A stretch of 44,644 nucleotides of DNA from a virus (taxonomy: Duplodnaviria > Heunggongvirae > Uroviricota > Caudoviricetes): positions 1-44,644 of IMG/VR virus record IMGVR_UViG_2563366806_000004; one strand, 5' to 3'. Below are positions 19,184 to 25,585 of this stretch, piece by piece (positions within the stretch are counted from its first letter, which is position 1; the number at the start of each line of letters is the position of its first letter). The notes under the pieces are model-generated. The model saw only the letters and a program-made list of their open reading frames with translations. It was not told the origin of the DNA and ran no database searches. Both the position numbers and the translations under genes were made by a program.

Positions 19184-19368
19184 ACGCCACAATTCAAACG
19201 ATACCAGAGCTTCTTATCCAGACACGAGGCAATCAGACCGAAGTGGCAAGGATGCTTTCCTGCGCAAGAGGAACAGTGCTCAAGTACAACCGAGACAGTA
19301 AAGGCGAGCGTCACGTAATAGTTAACGGCGTCCTGAGGGTCAAACAGGGAAAAAGGGGAAGGCCATGA
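19180..19368 (+). CDS. ninH: NinH
   Basis: 62-aa ORF; GNQTEVARMLSCARGTVLKY resembles lambda NinH. Confidence 0.7.
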   Translation: MNATIQTIPELLIQTRGNQTEVARMLSCARGTVLKYNRDSKGERHVIVNGVLRVKQGKRGRP

Positions 19369-19988
19369 GACTCGAAAGCGTAGCTAAATTTCATTCGCCA
19401 AAAAGCCCGATGATGAGCGACTCACCACGGGCCACGGCTTCTGACTCTCTTTCCGGTACTGATGTGATGGCTGCTATGGGGATGGCGCAATCACAAGCCG
19501 GATTCGGTATGGCTGCATTCTGCGGTAAGCACGAACTCAGCCAGAACGACAAACAAAAGGCTATCAACTATCTGATGCAATTTGCACACAAGGTATCGGG
19601 GAAATACCGTGGTGTGGCAAAGCTCGAAGGAAATACTAAGGCAAAGGTACTGCAAGTGCTCGCAACATTCGCTTATGCGGATTATTGCCGTAGTGCCGCG
19701 ACGCCGGGGGCAAGATGCAGAGATTGCCACGGTACAGGCCGTGCGGTTGATATATCAAAAACAGAGCTGTGGGGGAGAGTTGTTGAGAAAGAATGCGGAA
19801 GATGCAAAGGTGTCGGCTATTCAAGAATGCCAGCAAGCGCCGCATATCGCGCTGTGACGATGCTAATACCCAACCTTACCCAACCAACCTGGTCACGCAC
19901 TGTTAAGCCGCTGTATGACGCTCTGGTGGTGCAATGCCACAAGGAAGAGTCAATCGCAGACAACATTTTGAATGCGGTCACACGTTAG
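19365..19988 (+). CDS. Q: Late-gene antiterminator Q (lambda type)
   Basis: 207-aa ORF MRLESVAKFHSPKSPMMSDSPRATASDSLSG..., recognised as essentially lambda Q. Confidence 0.9.
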   Translation: MRLESVAKFHSPKSPMMSDSPRATASDSLSGTDVMAAMGMAQSQAGFGMAAFCGKHELSQNDKQKAINYLMQFAHKVSGKYRGVAKLEGNTKAKVLQVLATFAYADYCRSAATPGARCRDCHGTGRAVDISKTELWGRVVEKECGRCKGVGYSRMPASAAYRAVTMLIPNLTQPTWSRTVKPLYDALVVQCHKEESIADNILNAVTR

Positions 19989-20163: not shown

Positions 20164-20580
20164 TTAAGGGAGGGTTTTCATTACGCTATCAATCTCCCTT
20201 CCTTCAAATCTTGAAGTCCAGCCGCAGGAGCCGCAATGGTAAGGAAAGTCATCGAACCCGCTACCGACCTGTTTAAGACAGTTGGGGCAATAAACCGCGC
20301 TGATATACCCACCCGCGGGATTTTTTCTAAAGGCCGCACCCATGTGCTCGACAAACTCATCCTTTGCCCGATAAGCCGCTATTTCCTTCTCAAGTTCTAC
20401 GTTCTTGGCTTTCGCCTCGGCAAGTTCTGCTATGGTGGCAGCATGGGCTTTTTGAAGTACGTCGATCTGCTCTCCAATGAAAGCGATGCGCTCGCGCAGG
20501 ACCTCGTTACTTTGCACAGCAGAAAGCGCGCCGATCCCGTTTTTAAGGGACGCGATAAGTAATCCTACATCCATGGTCAT
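20164..20580 (-). CDS. Hypothetical coiled-coil protein with C-terminal CxxC...CxxC zinc-ribbon motif (antisense accessory gene between pR' and S)
   Basis: 138-aa ORF; start overlaps the stop of an upstream small ORF (ATGA); N-terminal heptad-like helix; C-terminal CPNCLKQVGSGFDDFPYHCGSCGW. Confidence 0.55.
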   Translation of the reverse strand: MTMDVGLLIASLKNGIGALSAVQSNEVLRERIAFIGEQIDVLQKAHAATIAELAEAKAKNVELEKEIAAYRAKDEFVEHMGAAFRKNPAGGYISAVYCPNCLKQVGSGFDDFPYHCGSCGWTSRFEGREIDSVMKTLP

Positions 20581-20714
20581 TCCCTAATTGTCTGTGGAAT
20601 GACCAATTTAGCAATTTCCTTTGTCTGTGGAAAGCAGGGAAACCACGCGCCGGGCGTGGATAAATATCCCGGTATTGAATCGACTGTTGGCTGCCGCTTG
20701 GCGGCCTTTTTCAT
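20577..20714 (-). CDS. Small basic hypothetical protein (translationally coupled to the 138-aa gene; start uncertain)
   Basis: 45 aa from ATG 20714 (MKKAAKRQPTVDSIPGYLSTPGAWFPCFPQTKEIAKLVIPQTIRE); the longer track ORF runs antisense into the holin gene. Confidence 0.35.
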   Translation of the reverse strand: MKKAAKRQPTVDSIPGYLSTPGAWFPCFPQTKEIAKLVIPQTIRE

Positions 20715-22050: not shown

Positions 22051-22083
22051 TTTTTTTGCAAATCACAAAGTCAATTTAATGAG

Positions 22084-22106
22084 CCTCGCGATGCGGGGCT
22101 TTTTTT
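22084..22106 (+). terminator. Putative intrinsic terminator after the lysis cassette
   Basis: Hairpin CCTCGC-gat-GCGGGG followed by CTTTTTTT. Confidence 0.45.
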
Positions 22107-22255
22107 ACATCTGAATTTCACAGCGCATCTCACGCGCATATTACATCACCCGAGCCTTTCAGAAAGTTGAGCCTGAGAACTGCCGTATATGGTGGCGACC
22201 ATCTCGGGGCGGCTTTTCTGTGAGACAGGCTCACTTTCTAAAAGGTAAAGACGCT

Positions 22256-22774
22256 ATGAATAATCCGTCAGTTATTCCGGCCTTCGACTTCCGCGAAATG
22301 GTCACGACCCTCGACAACAAGATAATCACCACATCACTCAAGGTGGCGGATTACTTTGGCAAGCGACACAAAGACGTTTTGCGTGCCATACGTAACCTGA
22401 AATGCTCCGATGACTTCACCCAGCGCAATTTTGCGCCCATTGATTTCATTGATAAAAATGGCGATGTTCAGCCTATGTATAACATCACCCGCGACGGATG
22501 CATGATGCTAGTGATGGGATTCACTGGCAAAACAGCTGCCGCAGTGAAGGAGTGTTACATCAATGCCTTCAACTGGATGGCCGAGCAGCTAAACCGGCGC
22601 ATGGCGATGGGTGAAGAATTGCAGCATCGCTACGCCATCAAAGAAACGCGCTCAAAGCTGAAAGGCACGATCGGAAGCCGTTTGATGAACGAGCGGAAGA
22701 AAGAGAAGCGCGTCCTGGAGCTCGAACATGAGCACATCATGCAGGTAACGCAGCCGGAATTACTTATTGGCTGA
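22256..22774 (+). CDS. Rha-family phage regulatory protein
   Basis: 172 aa from ATG 22256; ITTSLKVADYFGKRHKDVLRAIRNL resembles the Rha family N-terminus. Confidence 0.65.
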   Translation: MNNPSVIPAFDFREMVTTLDNKIITTSLKVADYFGKRHKDVLRAIRNLKCSDDFTQRNFAPIDFIDKNGDVQPMYNITRDGCMMLVMGFTGKTAAAVKECYINAFNWMAEQLNRRMAMGEELQHRYAIKETRSKLKGTIGSRLMNERKKEKRVLELEHEHIMQVTQPELLIG

Positions 22775-22834
22775 TCGCGGCATTACAGAAGCCCTTCATT
22801 GAGGGGCTTCGATAATGGAGCACTGGAATTATTC

Positions 22835-23455
22835 ATGAACAGACCACACCCACCAGCGCATTTTACGATGCCACCTGACCCGAAGCCGTACATCAGCATT
22901 ATGCCCGCTAATGACGTTGGCGAGTGGCTGAATCAGCACATCCTGAGCGATGAGGGTGACCTCTACAACCCTGACCACCAGCATTTGCTTGAAGCGGATC
23001 TGTGCTTTCTCTGGGCGTCGAACGCTTTCGAGAAGAAAGGGCGTTCCGTGCTGGGGCAGGCGGAAGAAGTGGCAATGCGTGCCGGAGGCTGGCAGAAAGC
23101 GCGGATGGAGCAGCAGATGTATGAATGGTTCGGCAGGGTGCCGCATTTCATCATCACGCTCGCCGCCGATTACTGTTCGCAATGTTCCGATCTGGAGTTC
23201 TGCGCGCTGATAGAGCACGAGCTTTATCACATCTGCCAGGCGACAGATGAGTTTGGCGCGCCGAAGTTCACGCAAGAGGGGCTGCCAAAGCTGAAGCTGC
23301 GCGGCCATGACGTGGAAGAGTTTGTGGGCGTGGTTCGCCGTTACGGTGCGAGCCGGGACGTGCAGGAAATGATTGATGCGGCGAATCAGCCAGCGGAGGT
23401 TGCTCATCTCGATATTGCCAGAGCGTGCGGGACGTGCATGCTGCGACTGGCTTAA
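22835..23455 (+). CDS. Putative zinc metallopeptidase-like protein (HExxH motif)
   Basis: 206 aa from ATG 22835; HELYH motif in ALIEHELYHICQATDEF. Confidence 0.45.
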   Translation: MNRPHPPAHFTMPPDPKPYISIMPANDVGEWLNQHILSDEGDLYNPDHQHLLEADLCFLWASNAFEKKGRSVLGQAEEVAMRAGGWQKARMEQQMYEWFGRVPHFIITLAADYCSQCSDLEFCALIEHELYHICQATDEFGAPKFTQEGLPKLKLRGHDVEEFVGVVRRYGASRDVQEMIDAANQPAEVAHLDIARACGTCMLRLA

Positions 23456-23486: not shown

Positions 23487-23960
23487 ATGGCTGCATTAAA
23501 ACCTGATGTGAAAGCCTTCATCATTCAGTCGCTTGCGTGCTATGACACGCCATCGCAGGTGGTCGAGGCTGTCCAAAAAGAATTCGGGATCAGGATCACC
23601 CGCCAGCAGGCTGAATCTCACGACCCCACGAAGGCCAGCGGTAAGACGCTCGCCAAAAAGTGGATCGAGATGTTCCACGCGACGCGCGAACGGTTCCTGA
23701 CCGAAACCAGCGACATTCCGATAGCGAACAAATCCTATCGCCTCCGCGTGCTTGACCGCATGGCAACCAAAACCGAGGGGATGAAAAACTTCTCCCTGAC
23801 GGCGCAGCTTATCGAACAGGCCGCGAAAGAGGTTGGCGACGCTTACACCAATAAGCTGAAGGTTGAGAGCACTGGCAAGGATGGCGGCCCGATCAAGACC
23901 GAGACGACCAACCTCACCGCAGATCAGGCCGCAGAGATTTACCGCAAGATGATGGGGTGA
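23487..23960 (+). CDS. Putative terminase small subunit
   Basis: 157-aa ORF immediately upstream of and overlapping the terminase large subunit gene; assignment by position. Confidence 0.4.
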
Positions 23961-25585
23961 TCATGCCTCTCCCGTTTGAATTCGATTTCAGAAACCCTGA
24001 TTACCAGATGGTTTTTGAATGGCGGATGGAGCGCTTACAGCGCATTCGCCAGAACCCTGAAATGCTGCCAGCGCTAAAGCAGTTTTATCGCACCAACCCG
24101 GCACAGTTCATCATCGACTGGGGTATGACTACTGACCCGCGTAACATCGATTATGGCCTGCCGGTCACCATCCCTTTTCTGCTGTTCCCGAAACAGGAAG
24201 AGTGGATTCACTGGATCATGGAGCGGCGCGAACGACTGGAGAACGGCATCACCGAAAAGAGCCGCGAAATGGGGCTCAGTTGGACCGCGATCGGGCTGGC
24301 CTGCTCGCTTTGTCTCTTCAACAAAGAAATGGTTATCGGTTTCGGCTCCCGTAAAGAGGAATACGTCGACAGCACCGGTGACCCGAAGGCGCTGTTCTGG
24401 AAGGCGCGAAAGTTCGTGGAAACACTGCCCATCGAGTTTCGTGGTTCGTGGGACGAGAAGAAGCATGCGCCGTATATGCGCGTTGAGTTTCCCGATACTG
24501 GCGCGGTCATCAAAGGCGAGGCTGGCGACAATATCGGTCGTGGTGACCGTACCACGCTCTACCTGGTGGATGAAGCTGCATTCCTCCAGCGTCCTCTGTT
24601 GATTGATGCGGCGCTGTCGCAAACCACCCGTTGCCGTATTGACCTGAGCTCGGTTAATGGCATGGCGAACCCGTTCGCGCAGAAGCGTCACGGCGGGAAG
24701 ATACCGGTATTCACATTCCACTGGCGGGATGATCCTCGCAAGGATGAAGAGTGGTATCGCAGGGAGTGCGAGAAAATCGACAATCCGGTGGTGGTGGCGC
24801 AGGAACTTGACCTGAACTACAGCGCATCTGCGGAAGGCGTCCTGATCCCGTCCGACTGGGTACAGGCTGCCGTCGACGCGCATATCAAACTTGGTATTCA
24901 GCCAACGGGCAAGCGACTGGGCGCGATGGACGTCGCCGACGAAGGCCGGGACAAAAATGCCTTTTCGACCCGTCACGGCTTCCTTCTGGAGAACGTGCGT
25001 GAATGGTCCGGCGTGGGCAGCGACATTTACCAGTCCGTTGAGAAGGTCTTCGGCTTTTGCGAACAGGACAACCTCGAAGAATTTCGCTTCGACGAGGACG
25101 GCCTGGGCGCTGGCGTTCGCGGCGATGCACGCGCCATCAACGAACTGCGTAACGCTGCGCGCCGACCGTCAATACTCGCCACACCGTTTCGTGGTAGCGG
25201 CGCGGTATTTGATCCGGACGATGAAGCGGTGCGCGGGGACAACGGACAGGCCGCACGCCTGAACAAGGACTTCTTCGCCAACGCCAAGGCCCAGAGCTGG
25301 TGGTGGCTACGCAAGCTTTTCCAGAACACCTATCGCGCCGTGGTTGAGGGCATGGCCTACAACCCGGACGAAATCATCTCAATCAGCAGCGCCATGGCGA
25401 GCAAAGACAAACTCATCATCGAGCTGTCGCAGCCGACCTACTCCATTAATGGCGTGGGGAAAATCGTTGTTGATAAACAGCCTGATGGCACCAAGTCGCC
25501 GAACCTCGCCGACTCGGTGATGATCAGCTACGCGCCAATGAATTCAGCCCTGAACATCTGGGAGCTGCTAGGGAGACAGGCCTGA
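23957..25585 (+). CDS. Terminase large subunit
   Basis: 542-aa ORF; ATPase Walker B-like LYLVDEAAF; followed by portal gene. Confidence 0.75.

Follow-up and report, generated by a model that had tools for sequence, protein, structure and literature searches.

A Rha-family gene and a metallopeptidase-like gene lie between the lysis and packaging genes

We analyzed a 1.4-kb interval of the IMG/VR virus record IMGVR_UViG_2563366806_000004, a lambdoid prophage whose full 44,644 nucleotides (nt) are referred to here as the window. The interval separates the lysis genes from the terminase genes and carries a Rha-family regulator gene (rha), followed by a gene for a 206-amino-acid (aa) HELYH protein, which we call MP. 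It is 99% identical to the corresponding part of the torS-adjacent prophage of Escherichia coli ECONIH5 and 97% identical to that of Citrobacter phage Omnitron. The genes and features of the region are as follows.

19365-19988, + strand: Q antiterminator
Ending by 22050, + strand: holin, lysozyme and Rz spanin genes
22081-22101, with a T-run to 22108, + strand: intrinsic-terminator-like hairpin, past the Rz spanin gene and bordering the rha cassette on the left
22256-22774, + strand: rha, 172-aa Rha-family DNA-binding regulator (PF09669, TIGR02681, phrog_518)
22781-22817, + strand: junction hairpin, 37 nt, conserved, at a mosaic joint
22835 (ATG) to 23455 (stop), + strand: MP, 206-aa PF18894 protein, metallopeptidase-like with a predicted zincin fold, first gene of the packaging module
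23216-23230, + strand: HELYH codons of MP (H128-E129-L-Y-H132), predicted catalytic zinc-binding motif, read from the sequence
23487-23960, + strand: DUF2280 protein, 157 aa, small terminase subunit (PF10045 at 8.7e-50)
23957-25585, + strand: large terminase subunit, 542 aa (phrog_2 “terminase large subunit” at 1.1e-31)
25585-27054, + strand: portal (PF06381 Phage_portal_3 at 2.7e-105; phrog_146)
After the portal gene, + strand: MuF-like head protein

The initial annotation of this interval had described a terminator-like hairpin, a Rha-family gene and a 206-aa protein with an HELYH motif, placed ahead of the terminase genes, and each of these descriptions is borne out. In a consensus terminator scan, the hairpin at 22081-22101 has a 9-bp stem with 6 GC pairs and a 3-nt loop, followed by TTTTTTT; it is also present in the computed minimum-free-energy fold, and the homologous site in the phi80 record is annotated as “putative rightward transcription terminator”. 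The Rha protein exceeds the cutoffs of both PF09669 (Phage_pRha; E 6.4e-31, 107.2 bits against 29.9) and TIGR02681 (6.9e-30, 103.3 bits against 45.95), and it matches phrog_518 at 1.2e-76. The length of MP and the position of its motif, residues 128-132, follow from direct reading, and the DUF2280 and large terminase genes lie directly downstream. The large terminase has no Pfam-A or NCBIfam match at E<=0.01, and only the PHROG profile phrog_2 names it; its RefSeq label is “hypothetical protein”. Both rha and MP are members of known families, and deposited E. coli and Omnitron sequences are nearly identical to them.

rha and MP are separable modules joined at a conserved hairpin

The two genes lie on the same strand with a gap of 60 nt, and they had been proposed to form a regulatory or anti-immunity pair, with Rha acting, for example, as an anti-repressor and the HExxH protein as a protease that destabilizes the repressor of this or a heteroimmune phage. 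Besides adjacency, this proposal can draw on the pRha domains known in some anti-repressor-type proteins (phrog matches; PMC9043618) and on the metallopeptidase fold of MP, which the structure prediction described below supports as genuine.

The co-occurrence of the pair was surveyed in 80 viral contigs with an MP that shares 80% or more of its residues with the window protein (“close loci”) and in 5426 complete E. coli genomes. Rha stands 5' of MP in only 15 of the 80 close loci. In 11 others, the slot is filled by a KilA-N protein; in 27, a spanin-like open reading frame (ORF) precedes MP with no called ORF between them, and the rest hold unrelated singletons. Of the E. coli genomes, 28 contain MP and 108 contain this rha allele; many of the latter belong to laboratory strains with phi80 remnants. 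The adjacent arrangement is found in 4. Outside this group, phages of Pseudomonas, Acinetobacter, Vibrio and Rhizobium keep MP with no Rha adjacent, and phi80 carries an identical Rha and no MP. Thus, the co-occurrence analysis called for by the initial annotation shows that Rha and MP assort independently.

The boundary between the two genes can be placed precisely. The rha cassette lies to the left and MP to the right of a 37-nt element at 22781-22817, which has the form CATTACA-[10-bp stem, 3-nt loop]-GATAATG and folds at -24.9 kcal/mol (z -3.4). The nucleotide match to phi80 runs from just past the Rz stop, through the rha stop, to 22817 and then ends, whereas in 40 of the 80 related loci, all of them Rha-less, homology to the window begins exactly at 22781. 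Since the homology breakpoints, 22781 and 22817, fall on either edge of the hairpin, a mosaic joint lies between rha and MP. The element itself occurs once in the window against 0.01 expected, and its stem falls into three sequence classes, in each of which pairing is kept. It is present 3' of rha in phi80 and directly 5' of unrelated small-terminase genes in MP-less phages of E. coli and Klebsiella; copies lie at L001 4724-4760, L169 2501-2537 and L170 2501-2537. In some loci (L022, L027, L073) it is doubled around a variable gene. Neither an Rfam match nor a T-run was found for it, and the other hairpins likewise have no Rfam match. The element behaves as a boundary between the lysis and optional-gene region and the packaging module, and it may serve to mark the module boundary, to process the RNA or to stabilize it.

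The protein families give the pair no further support. The profile searches that had been suggested recovered Phage_pRha for Rha, as anticipated, and left ImmA/IrrE (PF06114) and SprT unmatched by MP in Pfam. There is also no XRE-type repressor adjacent to MP, whose neighbors are rha and DUF2280; in a close relative, the CI-like repressor is encoded ~9-10 kb upstream, in the immunity region. MP resembles the ImmA/IrrE proteins (M78, COG2856) in being an HExxH protein of a temperate phage and of similar size. It differs from them in lacking a PF06114 match, in having Rha and a terminase subunit as neighbors in place of an XRE repressor, and in being encoded in the late region rather than the immunity region. 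In addition, the window Rha has no ANT/KilAC domain. We therefore consider a functional Rha-MP pair highly improbable: it is largely refuted by the co-occurrence data, and the observed distribution shows that rha and MP are separable modules placed side by side by mosaic recombination, with MP tied instead to DUF2280. Overall, the family assignments of the initial annotation were right, and the pairing that it built on them was wrong.

MP is co-inherited with the DUF2280 small terminase

The gene to which MP is linked lies on its other side. We compared 165 loci: the 80 close loci, 80 more selected with a divergent alignment, and records of Pseudomonas, Acinetobacter, Vibrio and Rhizobium phages. 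A DUF2280 gene lies 3' of MP on the same strand in 161 of them, and in 132 it does so within 150 nt. Among the close loci, DUF2280 is next to MP in all 80, with a spacer of 30-32 nt that measures exactly 31 nt in 71. Of the four exceptions, three, which represent two distinct gene sets, carry a different small ORF, unclassified, where the small terminase would be, followed by a large ORF; the fourth is a distant MP homologue in the lytic Bordetella phage PHB04.

The two proteins also diverge together. Pairwise identities of MP and DUF2280 correlate with r = 0.94 (12,880 pairs from 161 loci), a value for which shared ancestry accounts in part. The numbers of phage records with each gene agree closely by host genus:

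Acinetobacter: MP 62, DUF2280 62
Pseudomonas: MP 44, DUF2280 44
Vibrio: MP 8, DUF2280 8
Burkholderia: MP 7, DUF2280 7
Klebsiella: MP 8, DUF2280 9

The order MP-DUF2280-terminase recurs in the Pseudomonas, Acinetobacter, Vibrio and Rhizobium phages, and the large terminases that follow it fall into at least seven clusters without a BLAST link to one another. Therefore, MP and DUF2280 form a tighter unit than DUF2280 does with any given type of large terminase. Altogether, these results show that MP and the DUF2280 small terminase are co-inherited as a unit.

A natural small-terminase swap assigns MP to the DUF2280 side of the packaging machinery

The DUF2280 gene lies immediately upstream of the large terminase gene, co-oriented with it and overlapping its start at 23957-23960. 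Its role can be read from E. coli phage vB_EcoM-606R2 (L169 2559-4756), whose annotated large terminase is 96% identical to that of the window. Between Rz and the large terminase, 606R2 has the same junction hairpin and then a single gene, which encodes a Terminase_2 (PF03592) small subunit, and it has no MP. This small subunit and the DUF2280 protein of the window have only their last 39 aa in common, at 64% identity. By this comparison, the MP gene together with the N-terminal part of DUF2280 has been exchanged for the N-terminal part of a Terminase_2 protein, with the C-terminal tail kept; presumably, the common 39-aa tail docks onto the same large terminase. It follows that DUF2280 fills the small-terminase role and that MP goes with the DNA-recognition part of DUF2280 rather than with the motor or the head. 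The gene content of 606R2 further shows that this type of large terminase is able to dispense with MP once it is paired with another small subunit.

A characterized relative with the same MP-DUF2280-terminase order is phage AH14a. AH14a packages by a headful mechanism, and liquid chromatography-tandem mass spectrometry (LC-MS/MS) of its virions detected the major capsid protein, the portal (p62), p63 and one further protein (PMC4936722).

MP is predicted to be a zincin with an intact active site

MP matches PF18894, “Putative phage metallopeptidase”, at 9.5e-43 (145.9 bits against a gathering score of 23.7), over profile positions 2-134 of 134. The family comprises 863 representatives at the 50% identity level in a large protein library, and we found no experimental literature on it. 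We aligned MP with 86 representatives that are 33-53% identical to it. H128, E129, H132, H158, G171, C198 and G199 are invariant in this alignment, and H48, H50, W60, W86, D159 and E161 are nearly so. Because of the PF18894 match and the invariance of H128, E129 and H132, the HELYH motif is not a chance occurrence, and its reading as a zinc-metallopeptidase-type motif holds. The third zinc ligand is probably H158, 26 residues past the motif. The median ratio of nonsynonymous to synonymous substitution rates (dN/dS) is ~0.08 for MP against 57 distinct close relatives, and the predicted active site is, as judged from these substitutions and the alignment, conserved under purifying selection.

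An AlphaFold2 model of MP computed from the 86-representative alignment is very confident, with a predicted local distance difference test (pLDDT) value of 93.7 and a predicted template modeling (pTM) score of 0.87. Structure comparison of the model gave the following scores:

Projannalysin: 7.8
Selecase: 6.9
SprT domain of Spartan: 6.8
Proabylysin: 6.3
BepA: 6.3
YbeY: 5.9
Wss1: 5.2

The initial annotation had allowed that the HExxH protein might map to a virion or packaging family with no peptidase fold; the predicted structure is of the metallopeptidase (zincin) type, with the active site intact in the model, so the metallopeptidase assignment stands. Structure comparison recovers the hallmark of this fold, a mixed beta-sheet against which the active-site helix with HExxH is packed. 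About 110 residues beyond the matched core have no structural match. The minigluzincins (projannalysin, proabylysin and selecase) and the M48/M56 cores are only 12-15% identical to MP, with no Pfam cross-match. MP differs from the minigluzincins in that they are archaeal stand-alone proteins whereas MP is a phage protein, and in its ~110 additional residues, which include an N-terminal RPxPP, a DHxH motif and a C-terminal CGTC. SprT/Spartan and Wss1, as well as the C-terminal domain of ArdC, carry accessory elements that differ from those of MP and yield no profile match: MP has no SprT-like (PF10263) or WLM (PF08325) match at E<=0.01, and neither Spartan nor Wss1 appeared in the PDB-sequence profile search. 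Foldseek gave no significant PDB match for MP, and in a structure search of BFVD the matches were confined to further PF18894 proteins and weak SprT-like ones. Sequence and profile searches of the PDB with MP, its alignment, DUF2280 and Rha gave nothing usable, and the sole NCBIfam match was that of Rha. A role as a prohead (capsid maturation) protease was considered and rejected: the gene lies upstream of the small terminase and not between portal and capsid genes, and the predicted fold is that of a zincin.

About a quarter of the 150 best PF18894 representatives carry an N-terminal extension of 50-120 residues. The extension consists of a conserved helix-turn-helix (Y-S/T-x-x-D/E...AL...GD...AAK...VP...L..W) and an acidic linker, after which the core opens with RPxPP, a motif nearly invariant in the family. 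In one case, the extension scores at the HTH_Tnp_1 gathering threshold, and this likeness probably explains the “transposase” label that PF18894 proteins bear (phrog_513). The predicted DNA-binding fusion fits an enzyme acting on or beside DNA. We also considered whether the helix-turn-helix of the long MP proteins is a copy of the N-terminal domain of DUF2280, which would constitute a Rosetta-stone link, and rejected this idea (hhalign probability of 1%).

HK97-like cos phages encode HNH endonucleases beside their terminase genes, and MP could by analogy be a metal-dependent nuclease or a DNA-processing cofactor of the terminase. The positions agree: like the HNH accessory proteins, MP is a small (predicted) metal-binding protein whose gene directly precedes that of the small terminase and is inherited together with the packaging module. 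The helix-turn-helix fusions imply DNA contact, and the additional conserved residues H48, H50 and C198 suggest a second metal site. However, the zincin HExxH site and the beta-beta-alpha-Me fold of HNH proteins are unrelated, and MP has no HNH or His-Me motif. The invariant glutamate of HExxH is a peptidase hallmark, and the best structural matches of the model are peptidases; YbeY, which also appears among the matches, has an HxxxH-type site without this glutamate. We know of no HNH-type helper that headful packaging needs, and AH14a, a relative of the window module, is a headful and not a cos phage. We consequently regard a nuclease or DNA-processing function as quite improbable.

MP probably acts with the DUF2280 small terminase

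Taken together, the interval is best explained as two unrelated units side by side, and we consider it probable, with some reserve, that MP acts with the DUF2280 small terminase. The first unit (22051-22780) would be an optional cassette carrying the phi80 rha in the late transcription unit, after the lysis genes, and Q-modified RNA polymerase should read through the terminator ahead of it. The second unit would start at the junction hairpin at 22781, with MP as its first gene. MP is predicted to be a compact zinc-metallohydrolase built around a zincin core, in which the HExxH...H site is intact. From its position, it would be made late, together with the terminase, from the Q-dependent transcript. 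It may then act at or with the initiation complex of small terminase and DNA, most probably as a peptidase; its task could be to process or degrade one of the packaging components, or else to remove a protein bound to the DNA. Its action would be specific to DUF2280-type small terminases, and the same large terminase would work without it beside a Terminase_2 subunit.

Several observations weigh against a functional partnership of MP and DUF2280. Synteny and co-divergence can stem from co-inheritance alone. In PHB04, the distant MP homologue lies ~2 kb from the large terminase, among small genes. A set of 181 Salinibacter phages carries DUF2280 and a large terminase with no MP; no HExxH ORF was found near DUF2280 in these 181 phages, which have a membrane protein upstream instead, so MP is not universally required by DUF2280 terminases. 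MP is absent from the few virion proteins detected in AH14a; for an enzyme left out of the particle, this absence would be neutral. Finally, late expression of rha and MP is deduced from their position, and the scan found no convincing promoter of their own.

Some of these observations would also suit a different role, in which MP is an accessory host-takeover or counter-defense protease, directed, for example, against a host sensor or a satellite factor, and merely hitch-hikes at the head of the packaging operon. MP does lie at a module boundary, beside a slot that collects optional genes, and the Salinibacter phages and 606R2 show, respectively, DUF2280 terminases and the same large terminase without it; furthermore, these prophages have repeatedly been invaded by satellite-like elements with a DUF2280 of their own (described below). 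On the other hand, adjacency in 161 of 165 loci, constant spacing and co-divergence at r = 0.94 are rare for optional genes, as is the 45-70% identity that MP keeps between phages of Alpha-, Beta- and Gammaproteobacteria. In related loci, homology already begins before the MP gene, which places MP within the packaging block, and PADLOC gave no match for MP (nor for Rha, DUF2280 or the reverse-strand ORF at 20164-20580). We thus judge the hitch-hiking protease unlikely and prefer the partnership with DUF2280.

A notable by-product of the analysis is, therefore, a conserved predicted zincin that is genetically welded to one class of small terminase in phages of three proteobacterial classes; we found no literature on a link between PF18894 and DUF2280. 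If the link is functional, a previously unrecognized protease-type accessory factor, comparable to the HNH proteins, would be added to phage DNA packaging. Two role-less families, PF18894 and DUF2280, would gain roles, and the widespread “transposase” label of PF18894 would be corrected.

Satellite-like elements carry a second HExxH family beside DUF2280

The ECONIH5 prophage, otherwise 99% identical to the window, has a 13.7-kb satellite-like insertion in its head module (L002 26894-40627), at a point that corresponds to window positions 28921-28931. The insertion contains integrases, a TOPRIM/DUF927 primase, Icd-like and ash genes, a TumE-family toxin-antitoxin protein and IS5. At its end lies a second DUF2280 gene, with 65% identity to that of the phage. 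The double-DUF2280 arrangement is also found on several viral contigs (L034/L172, L045/L173, L018/L175 and L056/L176).

The satellite-type DUF2280 lineage is without MP. In five loci (L173 4201-4917, L171, L172, L174 4336-4908 and L179 4212-4916), the gene directly 5' of the satellite-type DUF2280 encodes a different HExxH protein, of 190-238 aa, with the FtsH/M41-like motif HEAGHA[IVM]AAW. It scores 25.7 bits against Peptidase_M41, just under the cutoff, and its members are 21-44% identical to one another. The possibility that this protein is a divergent PF18894 member was rejected (hhalign probability of 0.4%). The presence of two unrelated metallopeptidase-like genes in the same place beside DUF2280 argues for a functional link, albeit by one additional lineage only. 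We tentatively raise the possibility, which we would not yet call probable, that DUF2280 small terminases habitually work with a metalloprotease-like partner, this being PF18894 in the Alpha-, Beta- and Gammaproteobacterial phages and the HEAGH protein in the satellite-like elements.

The rha cassette is that of phi80

The Rha protein of the window is identical to phi80 Rha (AFV29199) at 172 of 172 residues, and an alternative GTG start at 22220 would extend it to 184 aa, the same as in the phi80 annotation. By this identity, the window gene is the orthologue of the founding phi80 gene, a known regulator after which the Phage_pRha family is named. In both phages, rha occupies the same place, after Rz and the terminator and before the right end or packaging genes, with the upstream leader and the downstream hairpin in common. 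The two differ in what comes next, which in phi80 is other small genes and cos, with no MP or DUF2280 terminase. The phenotype linked to integration host factor (IHF) is that of the phi80 gene.

The literature describes rha as a late-operon gene whose product blocks the growth of lambdoid phages in hosts lacking IHF (PMC4936722, citing Mozola and Friedman 1985; Henthorn and Friedman 1995), and the phenotype is known for phi80 and P22 (PMC4936722). The phi80 record itself notes “DNA synthesis inhibition in IHF- hosts” for rha. This growth block is the sole Rha phenotype established so far.

At E<=0.01, Pfam finds only Phage_pRha in the window Rha, with no ANT/KilAC domain (PF03374), and a 60-residue tail has no domain match. 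Rha belongs with the two-domain anti-repressor-type regulators Ant of P22 and P1 and AriS of Listeria phage phi10403S in its class of N-terminal DNA-binding modules (pRha, Bro-N, AntA/B and KilA-N; PMC9043618). It differs from them in the missing C-terminal ANT/KilAC domain, in which the SOS-inhibiting activity of AriS resides (PMC9043618). The likeness extends to the alternative occupant of the slot in sister phages of the window: the KilA-N protein, of 175 aa (PF04383 at 1.6e-15; L003 5368-5895 and 10 other loci), likewise consists of a single DNA-binding module, of the kind that alternates with pRha in anti-repressor-like proteins.

A sigma-70 promoter scan of the stretch from the terminator to rha revealed nothing convincing and thus does not support expression of rha on its own in the lysogen. 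Since no promoter stands out before the gene, the Q-dependent late promoter is, from position, the likeliest source of the rha transcript. The IHF consensus WATCAANNNNTTR has no perfect match upstream of rha; three occur elsewhere in the window, against two expected. The rha leader contains a long imperfect hairpin at 22150-22250 that reaches almost to the start codon, and the 210-nt stretch 22051-22260, which includes the terminator hairpin, folds with a z of -4.1 relative to shuffles. This leader fold could bear on the reported IHF-dependent control of rha, although it holds no IHF consensus site.

Other features in the window

Two further observations concern the region between Q and the holin gene. 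A 138-aa ORF lies on the reverse strand at 20164-20580, in the region that holds the toxin genes of Shiga toxin (Stx) phages. It matches phrog_1244 (unknown function) and has no Pfam match; its N-terminus is a coiled coil, and its C-terminus has CPNC...CGSC cysteine pairs. On the + strand, positions 20634-20711 give a weak match to the Hfq-binding small RNA isrK (RF01394; 21.2 bits against a gathering score of 50, E 0.17), which is probably not significant. The isrK-like stretch ends at a terminator-like hairpin at 20689-20706, upstream of the holin gene.

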